This document shows, piece by piece, positions 3,273 through 57,766 of a stretch of DNA of 64,000 nt. The notes beneath the pieces were generated by a model. The model saw only the letters and a program-made list of their open reading frames with translations. It did not search any database and was not told where the DNA came from. The stretch is taken from contig DATEZQ010000008.1 of assembly GCA_035583355.1 (NCBI GenBank), positions 36,610 to 100,609 on the forward strand. The letters are read 5' to 3'. Within the stretch, counting starts at the first letter, position 1. Each line of letters opens with the position of its first letter. Source of the stretch: Minisyncoccota bacterium. Lineage in GTDB: Bacteria > Patescibacteriota > Minisyncoccia > Phycocordibacterales > UBA6899. The translations under genes and the position numbers were made by a program.

Positions 3273-3397
3273 GGGAATGGGGTATGGGGAATAGGGTATG
3301 GGGAAAATTCATAAATAAAATTCGAGCACCTTCAGTGCTCAAATTTTGAATGTATTTTGAATTTTCCTATACCCTATTCCCTTTTTCCTATTTACCC
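3273..3397. repeat. G-rich heptad inverted-repeat element, copy E1
   Basis: gggaatggggtatggggaatagggtatgggg on the left; its inverse complement cctataccctattccctttttccta on the right. The central hairpin is gagcaccttcagtgctc. Lies between the lepA start and the murJ stop. Confidence 0.55.
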
Positions 3398-8950: not shown

Positions 8951-9135
8951 ATTAGGAAAAGTATAGCACTTTTTAATGCAAATGTAGGGGTTAAGGGAAT
9001 AAGGGGATAAGTAAATTCACAACCTAGATACAAAATTTTAGATAAATTTTACAGCAAACTCTCTATTATAAAACTCAAGAATTTGGATGAAGTTTGCCTT
9101 ATTGGAGACAAGAGAACCTCTAAATTACTATGTTT

Positions 9136-9266
9136 TTGGCGAAGGATTTATGGATGCAGTTTGCCCTGCTGGAGCGAGGTGGCGAAGGTAGACGTATTCG
9201 ATATACGGCGACTGAGCCACCGGAGCGAAGCAGGGCAAAATGCGCCGTAAAGACTCGCCAAAAATT
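9136..9266. repeat. MITE-like intergenic hairpin element, copy B
   Basis: Terminal inverted repeats tttttggcgaag / (ac)tcgccaaaaa. Core gatgcagtttgccctgctggagcg … gaagcagggcaaaatgcgcc. Central hairpin cgtattcgatatacg. Confidence 0.6.
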
Positions 9267-13821: not shown

Positions 13822-13880
13822 GTATGCTTATTATACTATACTCTACTATAGTTTGTATACGTGCATGAATACGTAAATTC

Positions 13881-14030
13881 AGGGAATATGGGGATGAGGG
13901 AATTAGGGAATGTAGACATTTATACACGCAACAAAGAAGGCGAGGAGCATTATCGAACTAAAAAATCACATGCCAGATGCATGTGATTTTTCCTCAAAAT
14001 TCCCTTATCCCCTTATACCCTTATTCCCTG
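13881..14030. repeat. G-rich heptad inverted-repeat element, copy E2
   Basis: cagggaatatggggatgagggaattagggaatg on the left; aattcccttatccccttatacccttattccctg on the right. The internal hairpin is aaatcacatgccagatgcatgtgattt. Lies between the HK operon start and the gap stop. Confidence 0.55.
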
Positions 14031-14035
14031 TATTT

Positions 14036-30492: not shown

Positions 30493-30690
30493 GCATAATG
30501 GCGCACCCTAAAGGGGCCCGCACCATTATGCTTATTAGGAACCCACGGCTCCTAACGCTTTCTTTGAATACAAAGAAAGCTGTGTTCCTCCACGGGGAAC
30601 CTCCCCGTTCCCCGGCCCCTTCGACACTCACCTTCTCGCTCGGAAGCGAGAAGGCACTAGCATGGTAATATTAGTGCTCGTTTTTCTAAA
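30493..30690 (+). repeat. Structured intergenic element R, copy 1 (possible small RNA; ends in a plus-strand terminator)
   Basis: gcgcaccctaaaggggcccgcacc … perfect hairpin gctttctttgaatacaaagaaagc … tcctccacggggaacctccccgttccccggccccttcgac … hairpin ccttctcgctcggaagcgagaagg … gcactagcatggtaatattagtgc + tcgttttt. The head and core segments recur at 31262-31545. Confidence 0.5.
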
Positions 30691-31261: not shown

Positions 31262-31545
31262 ACGTCGCGATGCGGCGCACCCTAAAGGGGCCCACACCGC
31301 CCTGCTCCTCGATTTCATTACATGAACGGTACACCTTTTGGATCTTTTATATCGAAGACTCACAAAAGTCCTCAAAAGGTCTTGCACTCTCGCTCCCATA
31401 AGCATGGGACCCATGAGCGAGAGCTCACCCACGGTTCTCGACGGAAACCCTTTCAGTCAAAAGGGGTTCCTGCTTTCCTACACGGGGAACCTCCCCGTTC
31501 CCCGACCCCCTCGACGTTCGAATCCCCGCGACTCCGCAATACAAA
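31262..31545 (+). repeat. Structured intergenic element R, copy 2
   Basis: Shares gcgcaccctaaaggggccc(a)cacc and tcct(a)cacggggaacctccccgttccccg(a)cccc(c)tcgac with copy 1. Several internal hairpins (ctctcgct…agcgagag; ccataagcatgg). Its 3' end runs into an inverted copy of the tRNA-Ser 3' half. Confidence 0.5.
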
Positions 31546-31600
31546 AAAAGAACAAGTACTCTTGCTCTTTTTTGTATTGCGGAGTCGCGGGGATTCGAAC
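31516..31600. repeat. Near-perfect ~40-bp-arm palindrome: inverted duplication of the tRNA-Ser 3' end plus ~20 nt of flank
   Basis: gttcgaatccccgcgactccgcaatacaaaaaaagaacaagtac | tcttgctcttttttgtattgcggagtcgcggggattcgaac. Confidence 0.7.
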
Positions 31601-31666
31601 CCCGGATGGCTGTTACACCATACTCACTTTCCAGGCGAGCGCACTAGACCACTATGCGACGACTCC
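31580..31666 (-). tRNA. tRNA-Ser (anticodon GGA), class II with a long variable arm
   Basis: Minus strand: GGAGTCG TC GCA TAGTGGTCTAG TGC G CTCGC CTGGAAA GTGAG [long variable arm ATGG…CCAT] CGGGG TTCGAAT CCCCG CGACTCC G. 7-bp acceptor stem, T-loop TTCGAAT, anticodon loop CU-GGA-AA. Confidence 0.85.
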
Positions 31667-35294: not shown

Positions 35295-36487
35295 CGGTAG
35301 TGCTCAGCCTTACTTGGAAGCCCCTCAACGAGTACAAAGAGGAGTGCCGCAGTAAGTGCAAGCACGGCACCATAGAAAAATGTTGTCTCTGGTCCCCAAT
35401 GCGTCCAAAGCAGTCCTCCAACAAGCGATGCGATAAATGCAGCGATACCGGTCAACATATAATAAAATCCATATGCGGTTCCGAGTTTTTCGGTTGGAAC
35501 GATATTTGCGATGTATGACTTTGACACTCCATCAGTAAGCGCCATATAGAATCCATATACAGGAAAGAGTATCCAGATATGTAGTGGCGATTGTATCAGT
35601 GCAAAGCCCGCGTACACAACAGCGAATATAACAAGTCCGAGCACATACACTTTCTTCTCACCAAGCTTGTCCGAAATAATTCCCGCTGGGAGCGAGAATG
35701 CAGAGTAGGTGATGTTATAGAGTACATATGCAAGCACCGTCACGATAAGCGAAAAGCCAAGCCCCTTCGCACGCAAGATCAAGAACGCATCAGAGCTATT
35801 TCCAATAGCAAAAATTGTTGAGATCACTACGAAGAAGAGAAACTTTCGAGGCAGAGCACTTATGCGGAACTTTTCTGCACTGGGCGCAATTACGGATCGC
35901 TGTTTTTCCTTTATGTACACTACAAGAAGTATGAGTGCAATAGAAGTTGGAATAAGCGCAAGGAAAAACATCAGGCGATAGTTATCCTGATAGAAGTGCA
36001 ACAACAGTATCGCCAGCAGCGGCCCAAGAATTGCTCCAAGCGTATCAGTCCCGCGGTGAAAGCCAAAGGCACGACCGAGCATCTTTGGCTCGACGTTTTC
36101 TGCAATGAGTGCATCACGCGCACTCGTGCGTATCCCCTTCCCAAGTCTACTAGTGAATTTCCCCGCAAGGACCAGGTGCCAAGTGTTTGCTATTCCATAG
36201 AACAGATTTGCAATCGTACCGAGCCCATACCCAACAACTACGAAAATCTTGCGCTTTCCGGTCATATCGGAAAGTCTTCCAGAAAATCCTTTTAACAAAC
36301 TTGCCGTACCCTCAGCAATGCCTTCGATGAGGCCTACAATAGAAGCAGGAGCACCGAGTACAGAAGTGAGGAATATCGGAACGATTGGATAAAGCATTTC
36401 CGAAGCAACATCATTGAAGAAGCTTACTACAGAGAGCACAAAAACGGGCGTAGTGACACCATATTTCCTTTCCAAATATTCACGCAT
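35291..36487 (-). CDS. MFS transporter
   Basis: Twelve predicted TM helices. The MFS motif region …GRLSDMTGKRKIFVVVGYGLG… between TM2 and TM3. Confidence 0.85.
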   Translation of the reverse strand: MREYLERKYGVTTPVFVLSVVSFFNDVASEMLYPIVPIFLTSVLGAPASIVGLIEGIAEGTASLLKGFSGRLSDMTGKRKIFVVVGYGLGTIANLFYGIANTWHLVLAGKFTSRLGKGIRTSARDALIAENVEPKMLGRAFGFHRGTDTLGAILGPLLAILLLHFYQDNYRLMFFLALIPTSIALILLVVYIKEKQRSVIAPSAEKFRISALPRKFLFFVVISTIFAIGNSSDAFLILRAKGLGFSLIVTVLAYVLYNITYSAFSLPAGIISDKLGEKKVYVLGLVIFAVVYAGFALIQSPLHIWILFPVYGFYMALTDGVSKSYIANIVPTEKLGTAYGFYYMLTGIAAFIASLVGGLLWTHWGPETTFFYGAVLALTAALLFVLVEGLPSKAEHYR

Positions 36488-36567
36488 ATGAATAAGTATA
36501 GCATCACAAATATATTGAAAAAATTACGGGAGTCATTGTATGACTCCCGTAAGGGTGTTTGGGGAAG

Positions 36568-37302
36568 CTACTTCTTCTTCCCCTTCTTGCCGTCGTCCGA
36601 CTTATTGCCGCCACCACCGCCACCGACCTTGCCAGGGAACTTGCTGGCGCGCTCGAGCTGGCGGGCGCGGCGCTCACCTTCGTGATGCTCGCGCGCCTTG
36701 GCCTTCTCGGCCTCGGACTGCGGGCCGGCGACCTTCTTGTAGACCGTGATGCTCTGCTTGAGGACAGGGTGGAACACGACCAGCTGACCGGGATTCTCCG
36801 ACTTCAGTTCGAAGCCGCAGTTGACCCAGTCGTCCGCGGTGAAGGTCACCTTCATCTTCTTCTCGATCTCCTCGCAGGAGCTCGAAATGATGGAGGGGGT
36901 CCTCGCACCGATGGCCTTGATGGCCGCGAGCACCTTCACCTTCTCGGCGAAGTACAGGTGGCCCTGGAAGCGAGCGGCGGCCCGCAGCATCGCGGACATC
37001 TTCGTCCCCCGCTTCTCGACGTTCTCGACCTTCAGCGCATTGCGCAGGAAGTCGGAGAAGTCGGAGAGGAGCGACACGGTGACCTCGGCCGGAGCCAGGC
37101 GCGTGATGTCCGCGATGAGCATGTCGGGCATGAAGCCGTTCTCGCGAACGACATCGGCCGCTTCGTTGAAGAGGCAGTTCTTGATCAGGCCCTTGGCCTT
37201 GTCGATGTTGCCCTTGAACTCGATCTCCGGCACGTAGGCACGGGGACGGATGACGGGCTTGTTGGCGGGAGTGGCGGCCTGAGCCGAGACCTGAGCGGTC
37301 AT
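36568..37302 (-). CDS. Hypothetical 244-aa protein encoded in a high-G+C (about 60-70%) island; C-terminal Gly/Lys-rich basic tail; probable horizontal acquisition
   Basis: Individual 60-nt lines count 63-73% G+C, against ~40% just upstream. The minus-frame protein has a natural composition, whereas the overlapping plus-frame and other-frame ORFs are Leu/Arg/Gly/Ala-biased antisense artefacts. The C-terminus is …KFPGKVGGGGGGNKSDDGKKGKKK. Confidence 0.55.
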   Translation of the reverse strand: MTAQVSAQAATPANKPVIRPRAYVPEIEFKGNIDKAKGLIKNCLFNEAADVVRENGFMPDMLIADITRLAPAEVTVSLLSDFSDFLRNALKVENVEKRGTKMSAMLRAAARFQGHLYFAEKVKVLAAIKAIGARTPSIISSSCEEIEKKMKVTFTADDWVNCGFELKSENPGQLVVFHPVLKQSITVYKKVAGPQSEAEKAKAREHHEGERRARQLERASKFPGKVGGGGGGNKSDDGKKGKKK

Positions 37303-37380
37303 GAGTGCACCTCAAATAAGAGGGTTTAGGGGAAAGTACAGTGCGACGACCGTTATCGTCGTGACATACAGTATACCACA

Positions 37381-37399
37381 TATTGACAAATTGTCAATA
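37381..37399. promoter_or_regulatory. 19-bp perfect palindrome (candidate operator) between divergent genes
   Basis: tattgacaa-a-ttgtcaata. Each half contains TTGACA. Confidence 0.4.
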
Positions 37400-37457
37400 C
37401 ATGTTAGTTTCATACCAGATACGGCTTGGTCGATACCAAGCGGAACAAGGAGCAGTC

Positions 37458-37874
37458 ATGAGCAACGTGCACAGCGAGAAACGCAACGATTGGCTATTTC
37501 CGGGCACACTGGGAGTCGTCGCGTGTTGCATCGCGTTCGCAATCGTCTTCGGTTTTATGAGCAAGAAGCCAAGGTCAACTGAGTCTGCGCAAAATCAGAT
37601 CTCCTCAAGAGGCCTCTCACTTCCCAACCAGAAACCTGTGCAAAACAATGCAGAAGTGAAGGCCGACAGTGACCCCCTCAATGGAGTTCCCACCGGCGAC
37701 TCCTATGTACTCATCATAGCGTCGGCGATGACAAGTTGCCCGGATACAGGGAAACTCTATCGAGACAATGCTCGACTTGAGCAGTTGGGTTATATCATGG
37801 ATCCTGATTCCCTCGATATAAAAGTCGGCTACGGAGCAAACGTCATCCATGCGGTCTACCACAAAAAGAAATGA
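37458..37874 (+). CDS. Small membrane-anchored hypothetical protein
   Basis: AGGAG RBS (aaggagcagtcATG), a single TM (LFPGTLGVVACCIAFAIVFGF), and a terminator at 37880-37915 shared with htpX. Confidence 0.5.
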   Translation: MSNVHSEKRNDWLFPGTLGVVACCIAFAIVFGFMSKKPRSTESAQNQISSRGLSLPNQKPVQNNAEVKADSDPLNGVPTGDSYVLIIASAMTSCPDTGKLYRDNARLEQLGYIMDPDSLDIKVGYGANVIHAVYHKKK

Positions 37875-37922
37875 GAGCAGTCAATTCAAAAGGGCATCCA
37901 AACGGATGCCCTTTTTCTATTA

Positions 37923-38834
37923 CTATTGTTTGACCGGCGCCGGCATTCCACGCAATGCTGCAATTCTCTCTTCCGTCGGCGGATGTGTTGCAAAAAGTTT
38001 GGCAACAAACTGCCCTGTTCCCTCAAATGGATTTGCGAAGTAGAGCGTTGCAGTCGCAGAGTTTGCGGTCGTCGACTCCGCATGCATGCCTGAGATTTTC
38101 TCAAGTGCGCTTGCGAGTCCCTCAGGATACCTCGTAAGGAGTGCACCTGATGCGTCCGCTAGGAATTCACGTTTACGTGAGATTGCGAGCTTCATCATTG
38201 TTGCAAAGATCGGCGCTAGCAGGGCAACTGCAATGCCTAGAATGAGCATCACTGGACTGCCTCCCTCATTATCATTACTACGACGGCGCCCACCCCAGAA
38301 CATCGAGCGAAGCATCCAATCAGAAAGAATCGCAATGAGCCCCGCGAGCACGACTGCGATAGTAGAGATGAGCGTGTCGCGATTGCCGATATGTGAAAGC
38401 TCATGCGCAATCACGCCTTCGAGTTCATTACGATTGAGGAGTCGTAGTAGTCCGGTATGCACAGCAATCGCCGCATGCTGCGGATCTCGCCCCGTCGCAA
38501 ATGCATTTGGCGAAGCATCTTCGACGATATAGATCTTTGGCATCGGAAGCCCTGAAGTGATACAAAGATTTTCAACAAGATTCCAAAGCTCCGTTGCCTC
38601 CTCTCTCTTTTCAACACGCTTTGCATGTACCATGCTGAGCACAATAGAGTCCGAGAACCAGAATGCCCCGAGGTTCATGACGAGCGCTACCACCACGGCA
38701 ATGATAAGCATCGATGGATTATTATTCACTTGCGCAAACACCCACCCTACTCCAATCACCAATCCAAAAAATCCGATAAGGAAAAACCATGTTTTTGAGA
38801 TATTCGATTCTTGCTGTGTATACAGTGTTGCCAT
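37923..38834 (-). CDS. htpX: Zinc metalloprotease HtpX (M48)
   Basis: HELSHIGNRD (HExxH) with flanking TM helices. Start set at MATLYTQQ. Confidence 0.85.
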   Translation of the reverse strand: MATLYTQQESNISKTWFFLIGFFGLVIGVGWVFAQVNNNPSMLIIAVVVALVMNLGAFWFSDSIVLSMVHAKRVEKREEATELWNLVENLCITSGLPMPKIYIVEDASPNAFATGRDPQHAAIAVHTGLLRLLNRNELEGVIAHELSHIGNRDTLISTIAVVLAGLIAILSDWMLRSMFWGGRRRSNDNEGGSPVMLILGIAVALLAPIFATMMKLAISRKREFLADASGALLTRYPEGLASALEKISGMHAESTTANSATATLYFANPFEGTGQFVAKLFATHPPTEERIAALRGMPAPVKQ

Positions 38835-38941
38835 CCTGCGATTATAGCAGAACTGGCCAAAGAATGAAGCAGCCTTCATTCCTCCTTCATGAACCAAAAT
38901 ATTGCATCTCTGTATTGTATTTCTGAATTTCACGCAACGAA

Positions 38942-39068
38942 AAACCGCTTATTCGGGATGAGATTGCCCTCGCTGGAGGCACGTGAACTCTAGTGAGCCG
39001 TATGGGTTATACGGTGAACGAGTCACGTGCTGAAGCGTGAGGGCAAGGTCGCCCGAATCAGCGGTTTA
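38942..39068. repeat. MITE-like intergenic hairpin element, copy C (between lemA and htpX)
   Basis: Terminal inverted repeats aaaccgcttattcggg / cccgaatcagcggttt. Core gatgagattgccctcgctggaggc … gctgaagcgtgagggcaaggtcgcc. Central hairpin ccgtatgggttatacgg. Confidence 0.6.
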
Positions 39069-39069
39069 T

Positions 39070-39630
39070 CTAGAATTTGACGGCTACGTTCTGCTGAGCA
39101 GCATCATTGTCGCCGAGGTCGAAGTACTCAAGAGCCTTAAATCCAAACATCCCTGCAATGATATTGCTTGGAAATGCCTGAATCGCATTTGTAAGATCGA
39201 GTACATTCGTATTATAGAAACGGCGTGCTGCCTGAATCTTGTTCTCTGTATCTGAAAGCTCCATCTGGAGGTTCAGGAAACTTTGATTTGCCTTAAGGTC
39301 AGGATATGCCTCCGAGAGTGCAAACACTGACTTGAGTGCGCCTGCAAGACCTGCCTCAGCAGCGCCCATGTGCATAGCATCATGAGGAGCAGCCATTGCC
39401 ATATTACGAGCCTCAATAACCTTTGTAAGTGTTCCCTCTTCATGCTTTGTATAGCCCTTTACGGTCTCTACAAGATTTGGGATAAGATCATAGCGGCGCT
39501 TGAGCTGTACTTCGATATCCTGCCAAGCAGCCTTAGCGCGATTCACGAGGCGCACAAGGCGGTTATAGGTAGACATCAAGAAAAGCCCTACAATTACAAC
39601 CACTGCGATAAGAATATATGTTGTTGGCAT
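39070..39630 (-). CDS. lemA: LemA family protein
   Basis: N-terminal TM, then YNRLVRLVNRAKAAWQDIEVQLKRRYDLIPNLVETVKGY, the LemA signature. Start set at MPTTYIL. Confidence 0.8.
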   Translation of the reverse strand: MPTTYILIAVVVIVGLFLMSTYNRLVRLVNRAKAAWQDIEVQLKRRYDLIPNLVETVKGYTKHEEGTLTKVIEARNMAMAAPHDAMHMGAAEAGLAGALKSVFALSEAYPDLKANQSFLNLQMELSDTENKIQAARRFYNTNVLDLTNAIQAFPSNIIAGMFGFKALEYFDLGDNDAAQQNVAVKF

Positions 39631-39709
39631 TTCGTAATTGTACCCTATTCGTGTGTAGAGGCAAGCAAGACCATGAAAAGATGATGAAGGCAAAATAAAA
39701 AGTGCGGCC

Positions 39710-40018
39710 TTAGCCGCACTCCACTTTTTCACGCGTCTCCGACTTGTTGATGTGTCGGAGATAGACCGACACATGAGGGTATTGCTTCACAAAATCACTG
39801 AGCACTTTCGCAGGATCAGGCTGCTCCCCTACAGACACACGATAGACATCTGCGCGATGCCCATTCAGCTGGGCGCGCAGACAACTCCCCTCTTTCCACT
39901 TCCCGAAGAGCTTTTTAACCACAGGAAGATGACGTTCGATACCCTTCTCATCGAGAAAGGTGATGTACCAGTATCCGCGCAGACCTGAGTAGATGCGGAG
40001 CGTTTTGTTGTGGGCCAT
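39710..40018 (-). CDS. Hypothetical protein (102 aa)
   Basis: Clean ORF. No family recognised. Confidence 0.4.
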   Translation of the reverse strand: MAHNKTLRIYSGLRGYWYITFLDEKGIERHLPVVKKLFGKWKEGSCLRAQLNGHRADVYRVSVGEQPDPAKVLSDFVKQYPHVSVYLRHINKSETREKVECG

Positions 40019-40196
40019 GAGGCACCTCCAAAGAATGAATTTCCTATCGTCATCTTAACACAATGACATCAAGAGCGACCCACCAAACAACACATTTCTA
40101 AACATAACCAAGGCTTCAGTATACCCTTTACATAAGCCATTTTTTATTGTAGTTTGCATGCAGAATAGCACCCTCACAACTACAACAGGAGCATGT

Positions 40197-42086
40197 ATGC
40201 CCAACCTTTTTTCTGACCACCGATTCCCCGGACTCAAGATCGCGATTGCGCAACTCCTCGTCATCCCTGGTGATGTGACCGGCAATACGGCAAACATCAT
40301 GACCGAGATCACGAAAGCACGCGCCTGCGGCGCCGATATCATCGTCTTCCCTGAACTCGCCGTCACCGGCTATTTGCTTGGAGACCGTTTCGAAGAAGAA
40401 GATTTTCTTCACGAAATCACACATGCCAACCAGATGATCGCTGCGGCCAGCGAAGATATCATCGTCATCTGGGGCACCGTCATCACCGACTTCGAAAAAC
40501 GCGGTGAGGATGGCCGTGCACGCAAGTACAATGCCGCATGTATCGCCAAAGATGGCTGCAGCGTCAGCAATGGTCTTCTCTTGGGATATGTACCAAAGAC
40601 AAACCTGCCCAAATACCGCATTTTTGATGACGCGCGACACTTCACTCCGTCGCAAACCCTCGCGCAAGAAGTCGATATCCCCCTTGCTTCACTTCTCTTC
40701 CCATTTCGCGTCAAACTCCCCTCTTCAGGTGAGACGATTGCTCTGGGACTGACAATCTGTGAAGACCTCTGGGAAGATGATTACGCAAACAAGCCTTCGC
40801 AGATCTACGCCGAAAATGCAGCCGACATCATCATCAACCTTTCGTGTTCACCGTGGACTGAGGGGAAGACCGGAGCGCGTGACCACATGCTCAAAAAGCG
40901 TGCATGCGAGTCCAAGCTCCCCATCCTCTATGTGAATGCCGTCGGTCTGCAAAACAACGTCAAGAACCTCATCTGGTTCGACGGAGGTTCGACCGCAGTG
41001 CACAGCGATGGCGAAATCATCTGGCGCATGCCTCAACATGAAGCTAGTCTCGGCTATCTTCACGGTATGATCCACGAGGAACCCAAGGAACCCCTTTCGG
41101 GTGTGGCGGAATGTCATGCGCCCCTCATCGCGGCCATGAAACAGTTCTACGCGCCTTTTAAAAAGGTAGTCGTCGGACTTTCCGGTGGCATCGACTCAGC
41201 AGTGCAACTCGCCCTGCTCGTCGAAGCCATCGGTGCCCCTAAGGTACTCGCCATCAACATGCCGACGAAATTCAACTCGAACACGACCCAGGATCTTGCA
41301 AAAAAATGTGCAAGCAACCTTGGTGTCGAATACATCGTGATTCCCATTCAGCCGATTGTTGATGTCATCAAGGAAGCGCTCGCGAAAGCTGGCTTTTCGA
41401 ATCTTCCGTCGCTCGTTGAGGAAAATATCCAAGCACGCACACGAAGTGCGGATATCCTCGCAGCTGTGGCGCAAACGCTTGGCGGTGTCTTCACCTGCAA
41501 CGGCAACAAAACCGAAATGGCACTCAACTACTTCACGCTTTACGGCGATGGAGCTGGGGCGTCTGCATTCCTCGCAGATTTCTGGAAGGGTGAAATCTAT
41601 GACCTCGCGAACTACTTGAACGAACAGGCGGGGCGAGAACTCGTCTCCATGGGTATCATCGATGTCATTCCCTCTGCGGAACTTTCTGCCGATCAAAATG
41701 TCGATGAAGGAAAAGGAGATCCCATCTTCTATCCTTACCATGACAATCTACTCCGCGCGTTCACCGAACTGCGCTGGACTCCGGCGACCGTGATGCAGCA
41801 CCTCATCGAGGGTAACCTCGAAGAGAAGCTCAACTGCGCAGGAGGTACACTCAGGAAATATTTCAAGACCCGAAAGCAGTTCGTCGATAATCTTGAGTGG
41901 GCCTGGGAGCGATATAATATCGAATGGAAGCGTGGACAAACAGCCCCCTGCTTCTTAGTCTCGCGTCGCGCTTTCGGTTCCGACCGTCGCAGCACGATTG
42001 CACCATCGCATACGTCGCTCGAGTACGAGCGTCTCGTCTATCTCTACCTGCATACCGAAGATGGCAACTGCCGCATCGGCATCTAG
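40197..42086 (+). CDS. nadE: Glutamine-dependent NAD+ synthetase (nitrilase domain + NAD synthetase domain)
   Basis: N-terminal CN-hydrolase (…IVFPELAVTGYLLGDRFEEE…). C-terminal NAD synthetase P-loop VVVGLSGGIDSAV. Confidence 0.9.
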   Translation: MPNLFSDHRFPGLKIAIAQLLVIPGDVTGNTANIMTEITKARACGADIIVFPELAVTGYLLGDRFEEEDFLHEITHANQMIAAASEDIIVIWGTVITDFEKRGEDGRARKYNAACIAKDGCSVSNGLLLGYVPKTNLPKYRIFDDARHFTPSQTLAQEVDIPLASLLFPFRVKLPSSGETIALGLTICEDLWEDDYANKPSQIYAENAADIIINLSCSPWTEGKTGARDHMLKKRACESKLPILYVNAVGLQNNVKNLIWFDGGSTAVHSDGEIIWRMPQHEASLGYLHGMIHEEPKEPLSGVAECHAPLIAAMKQFYAPFKKVVVGLSGGIDSAVQLALLVEAIGAPKVLAINMPTKFNSNTTQDLAKKCASNLGVEYIVIPIQPIVDVIKEALAKAGFSNLPSLVEENIQARTRSADILAAVAQTLGGVFTCNGNKTEMALNYFTLYGDGAGASAFLADFWKGEIYDLANYLNEQAGRELVSMGIIDVIPSAELSADQNVDEGKGDPIFYPYHDNLLRAFTELRWTPATVMQHLIEGNLEEKLNCAGGTLRKYFKTRKQFVDNLEWAWERYNIEWKRGQTAPCFLVSRRAFGSDRRSTIAPSHTSLEYERLVYLYLHTEDGNCRIGI

Positions 42087-42113
42087 CATTCCCCGACAAC
42101 CACCAAATGGGAG

Positions 42114-42235
42114 ACTGCAGAATTGAGATGAGATTGTGCCTGCTGGAGCTTTGCGAATTCTAAGGAAATGGGCTCTTGCCCATTGACTGAATCGCAAAGT
42201 GAAGCAGGTGCAAGATCGCTCAATTATGCAGTCAC
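42114..42235. repeat. MITE-like intergenic hairpin element, copy D (between nadE and pncB)
   Basis: Terminal inverted repeats ctgcagaattgag / ctcaattatgcag. Core gatgagattgtgcctgctggagc … gtgaagcaggtgcaagatcgc. Central hairpin aatgggctcttgcccatt. Confidence 0.6.
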
Positions 42236-42247
42236 TATGGAGGAAAC

Positions 42248-43591
42248 ATGGATTTTGCAAAACGCGCTCACGACCATTCGTTTCATTACGACTGGATCAT
42301 CCGTTCGCTTCTAGACATCGACTTCTACAAACTCTTGATGCTCCAGTGCATCTGGTTATTCTTCCCCACGACGGTCATCCGCTTTTCCCTCATGAACCGC
42401 ACCAAGCGCGTCCGCCTCGCCAACATCATCGACGAGGCACAACTTCGTGCGCAGCTCGACCACGTGCGCTCACTTTCCTTCCGGGAAAATGAACTCGTCT
42501 GGCTTGCGGGCAATAAGTTCTATGGGAAGCGCGATATTTTCCGTCCCATATTCATCGGGTGGCTACGCGACCTGCGCCTCCCCGATTACCAACTCAGTCG
42601 CACTAAAGATGGTCAGTGGGAGCTTGTCTTCGAAGGAACGTGGGTCGAGGTCACCCTCTGGGAGATCTACGCTATTGTCATCGTGAACACTCTGCGTAAT
42701 CGTGCAGGGCTCGCCATGATGAACAAGAGCGAGCTCGACATTTTCTATGCGCTCGGCAAAGCCCGCGCATGGGAGAAGGTCAAGATCTTCCGAGAGTTCG
42801 AGAACCTCAACCTCACTGACTTCGGCACCCGTCGCCGCCACGAATTCTTGTGGCAGAAGTGGGTCGTCGAACTCTTTGCAGAAATGCTTGGACCGAAGAA
42901 CTTTTCCGGCACTTCCAATGCACTCCTGGCGATGGAGCTTGGGCTTGAAGCCAAAGGCACAAATGCCCACGAGCTCCCTATGGTGCTCGCGGCGCTTGCC
43001 TATGGTGAGCATGTCCTCGAGAGCACTGTACTGCGTGGAGAGAAAGTACGCGAATCGCAGTATGACGTCCTTCACTACTGGCAGAAGACCTATGGTGACG
43101 TGCTCACCGTCTTCTTGCCCGATACGTTCGGAACTACGCAATTCCTCAAGAATGCGCCCGAATGGCTCGCTAGCTGGAGGGGTGGCCGACCTGATTCCAA
43201 GGATCCCTTCCTTGCAACGGAAGAATTCGCCGCTTGGTGGCAATTCCATAAGCAGGATCCAAGAGAAAAGCTTTCTCTCCCCTGCGACGGGCTTGATGCT
43301 CCAGTCATTGCCGACCTTCACCGCAAGTACTACGGTCACATCGGTATCGGCTATGGCCTCGGCACATTCGGCACCAATGACTTCCGTGGTTGTCATCCGC
43401 GAGGTCTTACCGACCTCGATCCCATTTCGCTGGTGTGCAAAGTTTCGCACGTCTTCGTGAATGGGATCTGGATACCCGCCGTCAAACTCTCGGACAACTA
43501 CGAGAAGGCCACAGGACCGAAGGATATGGTTGCCGAGTACCGTGCCATCTTTGGCACCGAAGGTGTCGCGAATGCTCCTGTTGTCGTGTAA
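42248..43591 (+). CDS. pncB: Nicotinate phosphoribosyltransferase
   Basis: DIDFYKLLM near the N-terminus, and LTDFGTRRRHEF, the NAPRTase signature. Confidence 0.9.
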   Translation: MDFAKRAHDHSFHYDWIIRSLLDIDFYKLLMLQCIWLFFPTTVIRFSLMNRTKRVRLANIIDEAQLRAQLDHVRSLSFRENELVWLAGNKFYGKRDIFRPIFIGWLRDLRLPDYQLSRTKDGQWELVFEGTWVEVTLWEIYAIVIVNTLRNRAGLAMMNKSELDIFYALGKARAWEKVKIFREFENLNLTDFGTRRRHEFLWQKWVVELFAEMLGPKNFSGTSNALLAMELGLEAKGTNAHELPMVLAALAYGEHVLESTVLRGEKVRESQYDVLHYWQKTYGDVLTVFLPDTFGTTQFLKNAPEWLASWRGGRPDSKDPFLATEEFAAWWQFHKQDPREKLSLPCDGLDAPVIADLHRKYYGHIGIGYGLGTFGTNDFRGCHPRGLTDLDPISLVCKVSHVFVNGIWIPAVKLSDNYEKATGPKDMVAEYRAIFGTEGVANAPVVV

Positions 43592-43604
43592 TTAGTTCAA
43601 TGCA

Positions 43605-43668
43605 AAATACCGCCCCTTACGAGGGGCGTTTTTCTACATAAAAAAGCAGGCCGAAGCCTGCTTGATTT
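43605..43668. terminator. Tandem back-to-back terminators for pncB (+) and the convergent nicotinamidase-like gene (-)
   Basis: aaataccgccccttacgaggggcgttttt, then aaaaaagcaggccgaagcctgcttgattt. Confidence 0.6.
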
Positions 43669-44713
43669 AGTAGATCCACGAACTCATCGGATCCGTCGAA
43701 CGCACGATGTGCATGCCTGCAGCAGCGAAACGCTTGAGAGCTTCTTCGCCCTTCTCGGTGAAGTCGGGTCCATCGGGGACCACAACCGAAGACATGGTGT
43801 CACTGAGTATGTACACATTACCTGCAAGCCGTGCATCACGTCGGCGAATCTCCGCAAGGAGATCATCGAGGGATGACTGTACGCAGTGCGAGAGCGCCTG
43901 ACCTGCAACGAGTATCTTCTGGTAGGAAAGGATGTGATCCATGAAGCGCTGATTGCGCGCAGCAATGGGTTGCTTGCCATTCCAATGCTCAGTCACCTCC
44001 GGAGAGAAGACCGAGTAGCTTTCGGTAAGCGTATCCTGACCTTTCAGTTCAGGCCGATTCTGCGACACGCGTGCATACGCATGGAACATGCGCGCTTCAT
44101 CAACGACACCGACGGGATTGTGCCCCTCGGAACCAAGGATGCAGTGCTCCGGCCAGAGATAGAGCATGTACTTGCCCGAATGGCCACCCGAGAGGACTTG
44201 CTTCACGTAGAAGCTCACCTGGCGCACCAGTTCGATATATGACATACCAAGCATGGCCGCAATATCCATGGAAGGAAGTGCGCGACCGAAGGTCTTGCCT
44301 CCACGCTGGATGATGAGATCGCCATCGATCATGTCGTGCGGTAAGAGCGGCACAAAGTTTTCATCTCGCCAGAACATCGGAGAGAAGATTTGGAACGGCT
44401 CATGTGTGTCGAGCGTTGGACTGATCGTAGTGATATGCGGTAGTTCGCGATAGATGAATTCCGAAAGACGACGCGAGTCATCAATCGCACCTTGCCCACT
44501 GCGACCAGCAACAAAGAGCGCCCCTTCAGGAAAACAGAAGTCGCGCTGTACATCGATGGGCATCAGAACCACCCTCGTTGTGTCGCTCGCTGCCGGGGCA
44601 ATGTGATTGTCACGGGCGTAATCGAACGCGGCTTCGACCACCTTCCGGAGATTCGGCCGGTAGGACCAGAGTGCAGCGTGCTCGGGGTTATAGAACTTGG
44701 GAAATTCGCGCAT
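43667..44713 (-). CDS. pncA: Isochorismatase-family hydrolase, long-form nicotinamidase-like
   Basis: MPIDVQRDF (Asp), a His-rich metal site (WPEHCILGSEGH), and the nucleophile motif LVAGQALSHCVQSS (VxGxAxxxCV). Genomic context is the NAD salvage genes. Confidence 0.6.
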   Translation of the reverse strand: MREFPKFYNPEHAALWSYRPNLRKVVEAAFDYARDNHIAPAASDTTRVVLMPIDVQRDFCFPEGALFVAGRSGQGAIDDSRRLSEFIYRELPHITTISPTLDTHEPFQIFSPMFWRDENFVPLLPHDMIDGDLIIQRGGKTFGRALPSMDIAAMLGMSYIELVRQVSFYVKQVLSGGHSGKYMLYLWPEHCILGSEGHNPVGVVDEARMFHAYARVSQNRPELKGQDTLTESYSVFSPEVTEHWNGKQPIAARNQRFMDHILSYQKILVAGQALSHCVQSSLDDLLAEIRRRDARLAGNVYILSDTMSSVVVPDGPDFTEKGEEALKRFAAAGMHIVRSTDPMSSWIY

Positions 44714-44816
44714 AAGACGCTCCTTCTTATAAATGGGCTCTAGCAGGAAACTACCTCATGACGAGCAGATGTCAAATTGGAAAGTATCGCAATGCAAAAG
44801 GTTCTTTATCTTGACT

Positions 44817-44835
44817 TAGTGTATCATATACACTA
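44817..44835. promoter_or_regulatory. 19-bp perfect palindrome overlapping a TTGACT -35-like box, between the divergent pncA-like and nadM genes (candidate NrtR operator)
   Basis: ttgact TAGTGTAT-cat-ATACACTA. Confidence 0.35.
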
Positions 44836-44932
44836 TTCTAGCGCAAGACAACAGAAAATCTAGACGAGTCCTAACCTTTATGGTAGAACTTGTGCAGACA
44901 TTCAATTGCTCTTCTTTTAAAAAGGAGTATTC

Positions 44933-45892
44933 ATGAGCCTTCGGGATACATTTCCCCTCGCTGTTGTAATCGGACGGTTCCAAGTCCCCCGACTGCACAA
45001 TGGACACATCCAGCTCGTCGCTGCCGCACAGGCACACGCTCAGTGTGTTTCGATGAAGACGGACATGCTCATCGTAATCGGCGTCAGCCCCGCCCTTCCG
45101 AACAAAGCAAATCCGCTCTCGTTCGAGGCACGACGTGCCATGATCTCGGCCCAGTTCGAGGGATTTCCTATGGAACACATCCTCCCCTTAAAGGATCGAG
45201 GCAACAATGATCTATGGTCGCGTGATCTCGATGCGCTCATCCAGAAACACGCACACGGCCGACCGGTCACGATCTATGGATCGCGCGATAGCATCGTCTC
45301 TACTGGGTCCTACAAGGGGAAATATCCGACACACTACGTCGAAGCGGAGGGCCTCTACTCCGGAACAGAAGAGCGCGCGCAGCTTGCGAATAATGATTTC
45401 GTGACGCTGCACCTCGCGATGGATGAACACTTCCGACGCGGATTCATATCGGCGATCATGACGCGCGACCCTGTTTGCAACAGCACCGTCGATGCAGCGA
45501 TCATCTCGCGTGACAAGCGCTTCGTCGTGCTCGGACAGAAGGAGCGCGACCATGGGAAGTTCCGTTTCCCTGGAGGATTTTTCGACAAAGAGCTCGATTT
45601 CGACGATGAAGCTGCTGCGATTCGCGAAGCGCGCGAAGAATGTGGCGACCTCGTCTTCGGAGAAGCAGTTCCCCTAGGCTCTGCAGTAATCGACGACTGG
45701 CGCTATCGAGGGACCGGCGACTACATCAAGACGCAGCTCTATCTGCTCCCTCACGAGAGCGGTGAGCTGAAGACCCTCGACAAAGATGATCTTTCGGGAG
45801 TCTCGTGGCATCCGATCGACCAACTCCTCAACCTGATTATTCCGGACCACGAGCTGCTCGCAAAGAAGCTGCTCAACTACCTCAATAAATGA
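44933..45892 (+). CDS. nadM: Bifunctional NadM-type NMN/NaMN adenylyltransferase + Nudix hydrolase
   Basis: N-terminal AVVIGRFQVPRLHNGH (the archaeal-type GRFQPFHxGH motif). C-terminal Nudix box GGFFDKELDFDDEAAAIREAREECG. Confidence 0.8.
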   Translation: MSLRDTFPLAVVIGRFQVPRLHNGHIQLVAAAQAHAQCVSMKTDMLIVIGVSPALPNKANPLSFEARRAMISAQFEGFPMEHILPLKDRGNNDLWSRDLDALIQKHAHGRPVTIYGSRDSIVSTGSYKGKYPTHYVEAEGLYSGTEERAQLANNDFVTLHLAMDEHFRRGFISAIMTRDPVCNSTVDAAIISRDKRFVVLGQKERDHGKFRFPGGFFDKELDFDDEAAAIREAREECGDLVFGEAVPLGSAVIDDWRYRGTGDYIKTQLYLLPHESGELKTLDKDDLSGVSWHPIDQLLNLIIPDHELLAKKLLNYLNK

Positions 45893-45896
45893 AATC

Positions 45897-45926
45897 CAAA
45901 AGGACAGCCAACGGCTGTCCTTTTTT
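45897..45926. terminator. Bidirectional rho-independent terminator
   Basis: aaaaggacagccaacggctgtcctttttt. Confidence 0.6.
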
Positions 45927-46580
45927 CTATAAGAAGAATTGTACCTTCTTCGCCTTCTTGAACACCTTTGCAGGTCGACCCTTCTGGAGCTTACGCTCTT
46001 TATTGGTCGGCTTGATCGGAAGTTCTTCGATAAACTTGTAGAAGTTTCGTTTATCTACTTCTTTTCCAAGCACGGAATCAAATGCATTCTTCAATTCACT
46101 GATTACGAATTCATCTTTGACGAAATTGAGTAAGATACTCGAGATGTACGCATGCTCACGCAAAAACTTTATTGCATCCGCAATGATGTGATCATGATCG
46201 TAAGCAAGCTTCAGCTTCTTGTTAAGCGGATACCATTCCAACCCGTAATCTTTATCAGAATTTTCGATAATACCGATATGTGCAAGTGAAACGACACGAC
46301 CACGGGGATCACGCTCAACTGCATCATAAAAGCCTAAACTAAATACATGAGGAATCACATCGATCGATGATTTTTCCTGTGCAATGCGTTTTACCGCCTC
46401 GAGTGCAACTTCTTTTGGATGAAGTACACCGCCCAAGAGTCCAGGAACATTCACAAAATAGGGCGGCCGATGCACCAGCTGCGTCGCGTATTCTATGGTT
46501 CCGTTTTTCATGCGCAATAAGACGATGTCAGTGGCGACAATTGCGAAACGCAATGTGTCCTTTGAGTCTAAATTTGTCAT
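45927..46580 (-). CDS. nrtR: NrtR-like regulator (Nudix-like domain + C-terminal winged helix)
   Basis: N-terminal Nudix-like fold (…FAIVATDIVLLR…VLHPKEVALEAVKRIAQEKS…) with a degenerate Nudix box. The C-terminal ~90 aa are wHTH-like. Adjacent to nadM/pncB/nadE, as is typical for NrtR. Confidence 0.65.
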   Translation of the reverse strand: MTNLDSKDTLRFAIVATDIVLLRMKNGTIEYATQLVHRPPYFVNVPGLLGGVLHPKEVALEAVKRIAQEKSSIDVIPHVFSLGFYDAVERDPRGRVVSLAHIGIIENSDKDYGLEWYPLNKKLKLAYDHDHIIADAIKFLREHAYISSILLNFVKDEFVISELKNAFDSVLGKEVDKRNFYKFIEELPIKPTNKERKLQKGRPAKVFKKAKKVQFFL

Positions 46581-46716
46581 GGTTCATTTATTGTTCATAC
46601 ACCAAATGGTGCGTACTACTATTATACAGGCTAGTGTTTTTCTCACAATAAGCGTGTAAATTCGACAGAAAGTCAAAAATTTCATGTACATATAAAAAGC
46701 GCCGAAGCGCTTTTTA

Positions 46717-48378
46717 TTAATAACCCATATCTTCAGCGGAACCAACAGACTTCTTCTCCTCGGGTGCATCGACAATGGCAACCTCAGTAGTAAGCAAGAT
46801 GCCGGCAGCAGAGATTGCGCGCTCGAGCCCAACCCGTGCAACCTTCACTGGATCGACGATTCCCGCCTTTAACATATCAGGAACCATCATATCATTTGCT
46901 GCATCATAGCCTGCATTACCCTTACCTTCCATAATCTCCTTGATGATTACTGCGGCATCATCGCGCCCAGTATTTTCAACTATCTGTGTGATTGGCTCCT
47001 TGAGCGCATTCACGACGATCTGATATCCAACCTCATACTCTGCATTCGTCATCGCCGCGCCTGTATGCTTTTCGTTTTTACGCGCTGCGAGATTCTTTGC
47101 GAGCTCCTTTGAGAGACGGACGAGTGTTGAACCACCGCCAGGGATGATTCCCTCAGCAATCGCAGCTTTCGTTGCCTTCACTGCATCCTCGATCTTGAGC
47201 TTCAAGTACTTCATCTCGGTCTCAGTAGCAGCACCGACACGGAGAATTGCTACTCCACCGGAGAGCTTCGCAAGTCGTCCCTCAAGTTTTTCCTTATCAT
47301 ACTTCGAGTCTGCATTCGTAATTTGCGCACGGATCTGCGCAACACGCTTCGCGAGTGCCTGCTTATTCCCCTTCCCGTCGACGAGAATGGTTTTGTCCTT
47401 CGTGGCAATTACTCGACCTGCGTGTCCAAGTACATCAAGTGTTGCATCTGCAAATGTCGTACCTACATCATCTGAGATGACGGTAGCCCCCGTAAGGGTT
47501 GCGATATCATCAAGCATGTCTTTCTTGTGCACGCCGTAGCCAGGAGCCTTAATGGCAAGCACATTAAATGCACCTCTAATGCGATTCACGACAAGGGTCG
47601 TAAGCGCATCACCTTCGATATCGTCAGCGATAAGTACAAGATCCTTTTTCCCTGTCTGTGCAACTTTCTCTAGAAGTGGAAGAATTTCCTGAATCGAAGT
47701 GACGCGTTTATCGGTAAGTACTATAGAAGCATCCTTAAAGACCGCCTCCATGCGTACGGAATCAGTTACCATATAAGGAGAAACGTAACCCTTGTCGAAC
47801 TCAAGCCCCTCAGTAATCTCAGAAGTTATACCAAATGACTGTGACTCTTCGACAGTGACTACACCATCATTCCCTACTTGCTTAATGGTCTCTGCAATCT
47901 TCTTACCAAACTCCGCACTCTCCACTGAAATCGTAGCAACCTGCTCAATCTCAGCGTCAGTCTTCACCGGCTTTGCAATCTTTGTGAGATAAAGCTCGGC
48001 ATCACGAAGTGCTGCCTCCATGCCACGACGTACCCCCATCGGATTCGCACCCATGGCGACACGCTTCATGCCTTCACGCACAAGTGCCTGCATTAAAACC
48101 ACGGAAGTGGTTGTACCATCACCGGCGATCTCGTCAGTCTTGCTTGCGACCTCCTTGGTCATTTCTGCACCGAGGTTCTCGAACTTATTTGTGAGCGTGA
48201 TCTCTTTTGCAATAGAGACGCCATCGTTGGTGATTGTTGGTGCACCATACCCCTTATCGAGGACGACATTGCGCCCACGTGGACCGATGGTGATCTTCAC
48301 CGCATCAGCGACGATATCGACACCACGGCTGAGCGCCTTGCGTGCAGCCTCTCCATTTAAAATTTGTTTTGTTGCCAT
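46717..48378 (-). CDS. groL: Chaperonin GroEL
   Basis: MATKQILNGEAARKALSRGVDIVADAVKITIGPRGRNVVL… with the C-terminal Gly/Met-rich tail. Confidence 0.97.
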   Translation of the reverse strand: MATKQILNGEAARKALSRGVDIVADAVKITIGPRGRNVVLDKGYGAPTITNDGVSIAKEITLTNKFENLGAEMTKEVASKTDEIAGDGTTTSVVLMQALVREGMKRVAMGANPMGVRRGMEAALRDAELYLTKIAKPVKTDAEIEQVATISVESAEFGKKIAETIKQVGNDGVVTVEESQSFGITSEITEGLEFDKGYVSPYMVTDSVRMEAVFKDASIVLTDKRVTSIQEILPLLEKVAQTGKKDLVLIADDIEGDALTTLVVNRIRGAFNVLAIKAPGYGVHKKDMLDDIATLTGATVISDDVGTTFADATLDVLGHAGRVIATKDKTILVDGKGNKQALAKRVAQIRAQITNADSKYDKEKLEGRLAKLSGGVAILRVGAATETEMKYLKLKIEDAVKATKAAIAEGIIPGGGSTLVRLSKELAKNLAARKNEKHTGAAMTNAEYEVGYQIVVNALKEPITQIVENTGRDDAAVIIKEIMEGKGNAGYDAANDMMVPDMLKAGIVDPVKVARVGLERAISAAGILLTTEVAIVDAPEEKKSVGSAEDMGY

Positions 48379-57666: not shown

Positions 57667-57752
57667 TGGGAATAAGGGGGATTCAAAACTCACCTATTAT
57701 CAGCATATCCGCAAAATCGCATTCTTCCCTTATCCCCTCATAACCTTATAAC
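57667..57752. repeat. G-rich heptad inverted-repeat element, copy E5 (lexA-dinB gap)
   Basis: gggaataagggggatt … cttcccttatcccctcataaccttataacc. Confidence 0.5.
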
Positions 57753-57766
57753 CTTGTATTCTCTCT

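Follow-up and report, generated by a model that had tools for sequence, protein, structure and literature searches.

A putative NrtR operator in the pncA/nadM spacer of a NAD salvage gene cluster from an uncultured Paceibacteria genome

A 64,000-nt window of contig DATEZQ010000008.1 (assembly GCA_035583355.1), which originates from an uncultured member of Paceibacteria in the candidate phyla radiation (CPR), contains five genes of nicotinamide adenine dinucleotide (NAD) metabolism positioned side by side at 40158-46580. The genes were identified from the listing of open reading frames (ORFs) and from Pfam and NCBIfam scans, and they are located where a first-pass annotation of the sequence had placed them. 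They encode glutamine-dependent NAD synthetase (nadE), nicotinate phosphoribosyltransferase (pncB), a long-form nicotinamidase (pncA), a NadM-Nudix fusion protein, and a transcriptional regulator of the Nudix-related type (nrtR). The spacer between the divergent pncA and nadM genes contains a putative operator, and we estimate with a probability of approximately 0.85 that NrtR binds to it and represses transcription by occluding the divergent promoters. Repression of NAD salvage genes by NrtR has been textbook knowledge since 2008, and the finding is mainly confirmatory, because it describes an NrtR regulon of the pncA/nadM type, which is known biology. Positions are given in the numbering of the window, and the loci of relatives are designated by L-numbers.

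The putative operator, TAGTGTAT-cat-ATACACTA (TAGTGTATCATATACACTA), occupies positions 44817-44835 and sits mid-way in the 219-bp pncA/nadM spacer. The first-pass annotation described it as a perfect 19-bp palindrome. The two 8-nt arms of the 8+3+8 layout are indeed perfect, but the CAT in the center is not self-complementary, and the site is not strictly a perfect 19-mer. Palindromy by itself is unremarkable: the window contains nine perfect 8-3-8 inverted repeats versus approximately one expected, and most of the others resemble terminator hairpins. The weight of the assignment comes from the identity of the motif with sites in other genomes. A position weight matrix (PWM) was constructed from 16 sites, exclusively from other genomes; with it, the window site obtains 27.5 bits, whereas the maximum in 200 shuffles of the window is 20.8 bits. 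At a threshold of at least 18 bits, the full matrix detects 76 sites in 892 kb of DNA around distant NrtR genes, whereas 811 kb of unrelated DNA from metagenomes gave no match. The distant loci belong to CPR bacteria, Woesearchaeota, Armatimonadota, Planctomycetota, Vampirovibrionales, and others. The site also agrees with the known consensus, as it matches the GT-N7-AC core of published NrtR motifs, most of which are 21-bp palindromes overlapping promoters (PMC2330246).

The site was compared among loci of relatives whose NrtR proteins are 91, 79, 79, 74, 55, 55, 54, 48, 47, and 45% identical to the 217-aa protein of the window. L084, L087, and L094 (NrtR 91%, 79%, and 79% identical) carry the palindrome at the corresponding place, in a spacer that has otherwise diverged. 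The substitutions in the orthologous sites are non-compensatory; in AAGTGTAT...TTACACTA, positions 1/19 and 8/12 are unpaired. Such changes fit degenerate half-sites recognized by a protein and do not fit an RNA hairpin, and the RNA-hairpin interpretation of the palindrome was ruled out. In the relatives with 45-55% identical NrtR, the motif precedes nadE, pncB, pncA, prs-nadV, and nrtR, often as a tandem pair. The recurrence at other NAD promoters anticipated by the first-pass annotation is thus seen in relatives, but not within the 64 kb, where no further match to TAGTGTATCATATACACTA with up to three mismatches was found. L090 has, in this order, nrtR, one site, nadE, two sites, pncB, nadM, two more sites, and pncA. 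One or two sites are positioned ahead of prs-x-nadV, beside nrtR, in L088, L091, and L092, and a site is located at nrtR itself in L003, L004, and L092. In L217 and L218, there are sites ahead of pncB, of a Nudix gene resembling nadM, and of an operon of PP2C, kinase, and pncA genes. The TAGTGTAT-N3-ATACACTA motif, with scores of up to 29 bits, was also observed near NrtR homologues in contigs of Woesearchaeota/Nanobdellati (L055, L058, L059, L060, L072), and judging from these sequences the regulator-operator pair seems to be common to CPR bacteria and DPANN archaea.

The regulon content of the window and its relatives agrees with that of published NrtR regulons. The cluster shares with the regulons of Rodionov et al. 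2008 (PMC2330246) a regulator composed of Nudix and winged-helix domains beside pncA, pncB, nadE, and nadM, a palindromic GT-N7-AC operator overlapping promoter elements in a divergent spacer, and a nadM-Nudix target, as in Synechocystis. It differs from them in its host, an uncultured Paceibacteria, in the 19-bp length and 8+3+8 layout of the operator, in the restriction of the site to the pncA/nadM spacer, with none for nadE-pncB or nrtR, and in the presence of NadM instead of NadD.

The 217-aa protein encoded by nrtR (45927-46580, minus strand) is strongly supported as an NrtR-family regulator by its sequence and predicted structure. Residues 152-208 match the Pfam family NrtR_WHD (PF21906) with 43.2 bits, relative to a cut-off of 27. 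The AlphaFold model, based on a 45-sequence alignment, has a pLDDT of 88.8 and a pTM of 0.85, and consists of a Nudix beta-grasp followed by a three-helix winged helix (H-H-H-beta-hairpin), which bears out the Nudix and winged-helix composition proposed earlier. The Foldseek matches of the full-length model include Bacteroides thetaiotaomicron AraR (BtAraR, 5bs6 and 5dd4) with TM scores of 0.78-0.82 (0.82 for 5dd4), Shewanella oneidensis NrtR (SoNrtR, 3gz5) with 0.79, and the complex of SoNrtR with a DNA 27-mer (3gz6) with 0.75. The same two-domain fold is thus shared over the full length with the structures of SoNrtR (3gz5/3gz6/3gz8) and BtAraR (5bs6/5dd4/5deq), and the R/K-N-F and R-P-A residues of their DNA-binding wing are kept in the family alignment of the window protein, although the sequence identity is only 23-25%. 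BtAraR is an arabinose sensor, whereas SoNrtR regulates prs-nadV. A sequence search of the PDB returned AraR 5bs6 (7e-18), SoNrtR 3gz5 (9e-9), and the winged helix of NadQ.

The Nudix box of the regulator is degenerate, G-x5-E-x7-R-I-A-Q-E-K(-S-S-I), and the Pfam NUDIX domain is undetected in NrtR proteins of the window clade, whereas it is detected in the 45-47% identical relatives. The box resembles the degenerate signature GX5EX7RQUXEKXDU of Mycobacterium smegmatis NrtR, in which the hydrolase activity was lost but the response to ADP-ribose was retained (PMC6800001). In contrast to what is predicted for the window regulator, the M. smegmatis protein is autoregulated and controls the de novo genes nadABC through a 23-bp motif, GTTTTCGA-N7-TCGAAAAC (PMC6800001).

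The operator coincides with promoter-like elements on both strands. The pncA-facing element (44818-44846, minus strand) is formed of a -35 hexamer TTGCGC (44846-44841), a 17-nt spacer, and a -10 hexamer TACACT (44823-44818), which lies within the operator. In the window clade, an invariant CTTGC precedes the palindrome by 7 nt on the strand facing pncA; the spacing is the same in L084, L087, L094, L088, and L091, and an arrangement of the TTGCGC-17-TACACT type stands before prs in L088 and L091. The nadM-facing element (44811-44839, plus strand; 9/12 in the consensus scan) is formed of TTGACT, 17 nt occupied by the operator, and TATTCT. Contrary to the first-pass annotation, the TTGACT box does not overlap the palindrome; it occupies 44811-44816 and abuts position 44817. 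This -35 hexamer is not conserved in L084, L087, and L094, which lowers the confidence in the nadM-facing element. In the tandem-site loci of relatives, a TTGACA -35 hexamer is embedded in the first operator, TATAAT follows 17 nt on, and the region of the transcript start lies under the second operator. To judge by the sequence, this is a classical repressor layout.

Two conserved promoter-like elements are positioned nearer to the genes and outside the operator. The element next to pncA (44748-44775, minus strand) contains TTGACA (44775-44770), 16 nt, and TAGTTT (44753-44748); its TTGAC and GTAGT are invariant in four orthologous spacers, and it is also present in L091 and L003. The corresponding block near nadM is TGGTAGAAC. 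It is possible that TTGACA-16-TAGTTT and TGGTAGAAC are basal promoters of pncA and nadM, respectively.

The gene identities, the fold of the regulator, the identity, conservation, and enrichment of the motif, and its placement with respect to the conserved promoter-like hexamers are observed; from them we infer the binding itself, the sign of the regulation, the effector, and the responding gene of the divergent pair. A dimer of NrtR would bind TAGTGTAT-N3-ATACACTA at 44817-44835. The bound repressor would block the start of RNA polymerase toward the nicotinamidase gene, and probably also toward nadM-Nudix, because the site fills the spacer between the nadM-facing -35 and -10 hexamers and contains the pncA-facing -10 hexamer TACACT. 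A breakdown product of NAD, most likely ADP-ribose, would bind to the presumably catalytically dead Nudix domain and cause the release of the DNA. Salvage by PncA, and ADP-ribose disposal together with adenylylation by NadM-Nudix, would then rise while NAD is consumed, and the Nudix domain of the induced NadM-Nudix would in turn clear ADP-ribose. The nadE-pncB genes would form a separate operator-free unit, interrupted by a structured repeat, outside the direct control of NrtR, and nrtR would be transcribed from its own unregulated promoter.

Several observations weigh against this interpretation. The 64 kb contain a single site, and nadE and pncB are without one; ahead of these two genes, a PWM search for degenerate sites yielded nothing that reaches 6 bits. 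Promoter-like matches are not in excess in the region (6 versus 5.4 in shuffles), and the operator-free elements may let a part of the expression escape the repressor. BtAraR, to which the regulator is closest in sequence among solved proteins, senses arabinose and not ADP-ribose. The regulator also scores only 46.2 bits, relative to a cut-off of 400, against the NCBIfam model NF050029 of the ADP-ribose-responsive repressor NtrR equivalog. NF050029 is a narrow equivalog model, and by its sequence the 217-aa protein is a distant family member outside of that orthologue group.

The alternatives differ in what they retain. NrtR could bind the site but respond to another NAD-related nucleotide or to a sugar, as BtAraR does, or it could act by more than simple occlusion, for example by modulating two tandem promoters. 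The best PDB matches in both sequence and fold being BtAraR, the degenerate Nudix box, and the operator-free promoter-like elements nearer to both genes are consistent with this explanation. Nevertheless, it is unlikely: the genomic context in the window and in relatives is exclusively NAD metabolism, and the co-regulated NadM-Nudix, together with an ADP-ribosylglycohydrolase in L218, points to ADP-ribose. The characterized NAD-linked NrtR proteins answer to ADP-ribose (PMC2330246, PMC6800001), which frees NrtR from DNA in electrophoretic mobility shift assays (PMC2330246). By analogy with them, ADP-ribose is a reasonably probable effector, although less certain than the repression at the operator. 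The more radical alternative, that the palindrome is not a protein operator but a chance inverted repeat, the core of a bidirectional promoter, or a small RNA or DNA hairpin, draws on the nine perfect 8-3-8 repeats in the window, which show palindromy alone to be common, and on the coincidence of the site with promoter-like hexamers on both strands. However, dozens of unrelated genomes carry the sequence-specific motif beside their NrtR genes and the control DNA has none, the site is conserved amid diverging flanks with substitutions that break the hairpin pairing, and a 3-nt loop on an A/T-rich 8-bp stem would make a weak hairpin. This alternative is largely refuted and highly improbable. The assignment of the palindrome as an NrtR operator, proposed in the first-pass annotation, is strongly supported as a prediction by the PWM score, the conservation, and the 76:0 enrichment.

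Another perfect 8-3-8 palindrome, TATTGACA-aat-TGTCAATA, is located at 37381-37399 in the divergent spacer of two ORFs of 244 aa (36568-37302, minus strand) and 138 aa (37458-37874, plus strand), neither of which matches Pfam. Its sequence and position make it a candidate operator of a different regulator.

The promoter-like element of nrtR (46621-46648, minus strand) consists of TTGTGA, 16 nt, and TATAAT, and scores 10/12 in the scan; both hexamers are conserved in five orthologues. A second operator before nrtR (46632-46650, TAGTGTttttctcACAATA) was considered and rejected. Its score of 12.2 bits equals the median of the best shuffle scores, and only the TTGTG belonging to the -35 hexamer is kept in the five orthologues, whereas the right half-site is not. 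Because the match is at chance level and not conserved, autoregulation is unlikely in the lineage of the window. The 5' leader of nrtR contains a stem-loop GCACC-N4-GGUGC (46590-46615, minus strand) between the -10 hexamer and the ribosome-binding site. The stem-loop is conserved in five orthologues, and an A-to-G change that keeps the pairing as G.U is RNA-like.

The nadE gene (40158-42086, plus strand) encodes 642 aa as the longest ORF, but the start is likely ATG 40197, since the AGGAG upstream of it is a better ribosome-binding site than that of the longest-ORF start. The product is of the glutamine-dependent type, because it contains both a CN-hydrolase and a NAD-synthase domain (Pfam CN_hydrolase 3e-17, NAD_synthase 3e-39); its score against NF010588, 349 bits, is under the equivalog cut-off of 479. 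The 447-aa product of pncB (42248-43591, plus strand) matches Pfam NAPRTase_N and NAPRTase, and scores 379.3 bits against the NCBIfam model NF003704, which has a cut-off of 379. Terminator-like hairpins were identified by the consensus scan between the convergent pncB and pncA (43611-43663), with 43611-43628 on both strands and 43644-43663 on the minus strand. The convergent nadM and nrtR share a terminator hairpin (45898-45924) with a 12-bp stem and T/A runs on its flanks, to which Rfam sraA gives a sub-threshold match. From this arrangement we infer the transcription units nadE-pncB, pncA, nadM, and nrtR. The same locus is present on two Logan contigs (L001, L002), and the 217-aa regulator is identical to the NCBI protein VJ579_03885 of a 'Candidatus Paceibacterota' metagenome-assembled genome. 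The G+C content is 0.49-0.53 over the region of htpX, lemA, the NAD cluster, and groEL (36000-48000), compared to 0.45-0.47 in most of the window.

The 348-aa product of pncA (43667-44713, minus strand) was recognized by its fold and catalytic residues. The ORF has no Pfam match, PF00857 included, and no PDB match by sequence, and its score of 21.9 bits against the NCBIfam PncA model NF008623 is below the cut-off of 174. However, several sources apply the name nicotinamidase to the large family of which it is a member, and some homologues in this family carry a precomputed PF00857 match. The residues of the catalytic triad, D54, K224, and C277, and of the metal site, D102, H104, and H190, are invariant in 26 homologues in the family alignment. 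The family profile aligns three motif stretches (D8, WPxHC, C138) to Mycobacterium tuberculosis PncA. The structural model has a pLDDT of 88, and its top 11 Foldseek matches in the PDB are exclusively nicotinamidases, with a probability of 1.0. They include 2wta, 9u8m, 2h0r from yeast, and 1ilw from P. horikoshii, and have TMt values of approximately 0.7, except for the 327-aa Drosophila protein 9u8m with 0.46. The protein shares the isochorismatase-like fold with long nicotinamidases (~330-360 aa, e.g. Drosophila Naam, 9u8m) and with classical PncA proteins (M. tuberculosis 3pl1, A. baumannii 2wta), and the common motifs DxQxDF, DxH, WPxHC, KG...YS, and GxAxxxCV are invariant across the 348-aa family. 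It differs from the solved nicotinamidases by approximately 150 additional residues, present as insertions, by an identity of 14-18%, and by the missing Pfam match. The fold, triad, and metal site confirm the long nicotinamidase-like isochorismatase of the first-pass annotation, and the ORF is predicted from sequence and model to be a genuine long-form nicotinamidase.

The 319-aa product of nadM-Nudix (44933-45892, plus strand) combines a predicted adenylyltransferase of nicotinamide mononucleotide or nicotinic acid mononucleotide (NaMN) with a Nudix domain of the ADP-ribose pyrophosphatase type. The translation contains GRFQ..HNGH (GRFQVPRLHNGH), SGTEER, and the Nudix box REAREECG(D), and it has a Pfam NUDIX match. 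NCBIfam NadM-Nudix models match both halves, with the best score of 47 bits not reaching the equivalog cut-off of 449. The best PDB match is Francisella tularensis NadM-Nudix 2qjt (E = 1e-6), with the two domains in the same order. The domain order, HxGH, SxTxxR, and the REx2EE Nudix box are shared with the F. tularensis enzyme (2qjt/2r5w) and with Synechocystis slr0787 (2qjo); however, the window protein has strongly diverged from them, with a 4-residue insertion ahead of HNGH and a Nudix-box spacer that is 3 residues longer. The Preiss-Handler route, called complete in the first-pass annotation, would be so only if NadM accepts NaMN. A motif search of the 64-kb window found no NadD-type motif. 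The order of reactions may be Francisella-like, with NadE acting before NadM.

The intergenic region of nadE and pncB contains a hairpin repeat, which is the sole element here that is not already catalogued. Four copies, 121-131 nt long and all on the plus strand, were identified in the window by the covariance model (CM) R1; copies A and B were not in its training set. Copy D (42108-42237), with a paired core of 121 nt and 49 bp at 42113-42233, is located between the stop codon of nadE and the ribosome-binding site of pncB. It is a near-perfect hairpin with a minimum free energy of -78 kcal/mol (z = -10.2), and scores 135 bits in the sense and 42 bits in the antisense orientation. Copy C (38938-39070; 135 bits) is in the lemA-htpX spacer, antisense to both genes, copy A (1307-1437; 109.6 bits, E = 3e-25) is between convergent ORFs, and copy B (9133-9263; 55.9 bits, E = 1e-11) is the most diverged. 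Searches with blastn and blastn-short found no paralogues of copy D, and the CM was needed because the stems covary. A 17-mer from the hairpin arm, too short a pattern, gave at least 120 chance matches in metagenomes, and none of those listed carries the element. No Rfam match to the repeat was found in the cluster, copy C, or the whole window, which gave only a tRNA, and the CM detected no copies in the loci of more distant relatives. Hairpins rich in G, with 8-nt periodic GGGAAT/GGGGTAT sequences and arms of 31-42 nt that are 77-81% complementary, form a separate class of repeats at 3276-3392, 13875-14035, and 57717-57762. They were ruled out as copies A-C, since they are unrelated to copy D in sequence.

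The first-pass annotation described copy D as an inserted element resembling miniature inverted-repeat transposable elements (MITEs). It is indeed one of several copies of a repeat, and the label copy D holds, but its mobility is unproven. L084 carries it at the corresponding place, with 14 compensatory pairs, and an ortholog of copy C is present in the lemA-htpX spacer of L085 (NrtR 74% identical). No target-site duplications or flanking direct repeats were found at the copies, and no partner transposase was identified, although the window was not screened for transposases. Insertion of copy D is plausible only as an old event. In common with MITEs and with the repetitive extragenic palindromes (REP) and bacterial interspersed mosaic elements (BIME), the repeat is short, non-coding, multi-copy, intergenic, and formed almost entirely of an inverted repeat, and its window copies are on one DNA strand. 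Unlike in those elements, the copies differ mainly by compensatory changes instead of being nearly identical, and copies C and D each have an ortholog in a sister genome.

It is conceivable, but rather doubtful, that the hairpin between nadE and pncB is not a mobile MITE but a cis-acting RNA involved in the processing, stability, or attenuation of nadE-pncB. In an alignment of six copies, 33 of 52 pairs exhibit double changes and 94.9% of the cells are paired; none of 500 shuffles is as good, and slid controls pair at approximately 35%. The repeat has an invariant U.G pair and conserved internal-loop motifs. Folding favors the sense over the antisense strand by 14-18 kcal/mol in the three folded copies (window D, L084, L085), and the CM prefers it by 84-104 bits in the five copies for which an antisense match is listed. 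The retention of copy D in L084, and the positions of copies A and D just 3' of plus-strand ORFs, are also consistent with an RNA. On the other hand, copy C and its L085 ortholog are antisense to both neighbors, and copy D has neither a U-run nor a conserved pairing with the pncB ribosome-binding site. The orientation of the repeat tracks the DNA strand and not the flanking genes, with four of four copies on the plus strand, the GC skew of which is negative over the whole 64 kb. This suits an element recognized as single-stranded DNA, of the REP or IS200-like kind. In L090 and L217, NrtR sites and a promoter are present before pncB where the lineage of the window has the hairpin. A slightly more speculative proposal is that this Paceibacteria lineage has, in the four-copy hairpin, a structured element not described before, which would act as a functional RNA or be recognized as single-stranded DNA, and that copy D replaced an ancestral NrtR-controlled pncB promoter. 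If this were true, pncB and nadE would have been released from NrtR by copy D, leaving a regulon reduced to pncA/nadM.

The locus of L085 (7001-8310) has a different composition. The nrtR gene is kept beside a 145-aa fragment that matches NadM residues 8-141 with 54% identity, in which GRFQ is changed to SRFE and HNGH to NTGH. The pncA, pncB, and nadE genes are absent, and no operator was found at the locus. From the sequence, L085 looks like a case of reductive decay that left an orphan regulator. Because L085 keeps nrtR but lost pncA, pncB, nadE, and an intact nadM, the NAD island appears to be dispensable in the clade. In several CPR relatives (L218:3100-7929; L217:5080-9896; L094:4632-5583), NrtR sites precede an operon in which the genes of a PP2C phosphatase and a ~630-aa Ser/Thr kinase-like protein come first, with pncA and the gene of a conserved 259-aa protein without a Pfam match after them. 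The L218 cluster additionally encodes the ADP-ribosylglycohydrolase and NAD kinase. As predicted from these sequences, the PP2C/kinase pair is an unexpected signaling module within the NrtR regulon.

Elsewhere in the window, a tRNA gene (31580-31666, minus strand) is overlapped at its 3' end by a 33-nt perfect inverted repeat (31516-31600), so that this part of the tRNA occurs a second time in inverted orientation. Beside it is a 46-nt direct repeat (30580-30625 and 31470-31515), the copies of which are 89% identical and 890 bp apart. The repeats at the tRNA end may be a remnant of an integration event.

CPR bacteria, or Patescibacteria, have very small genomes with few recognizable regulators, and a search of one literature library found no published description of NrtR in them. 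A confident regulator-operator pair is a rare and directly testable handle on NAD sensing in such an organism. The TAGTGTAT-N3-ATACACTA matrix works across CPR bacteria, DPANN archaea, and several other phyla, and is usable for mapping NrtR regulons across thousands of genomes of uncultured organisms, in some of which it points to a PP2C phosphatase and Ser/Thr kinase module that would be co-regulated with pncA.

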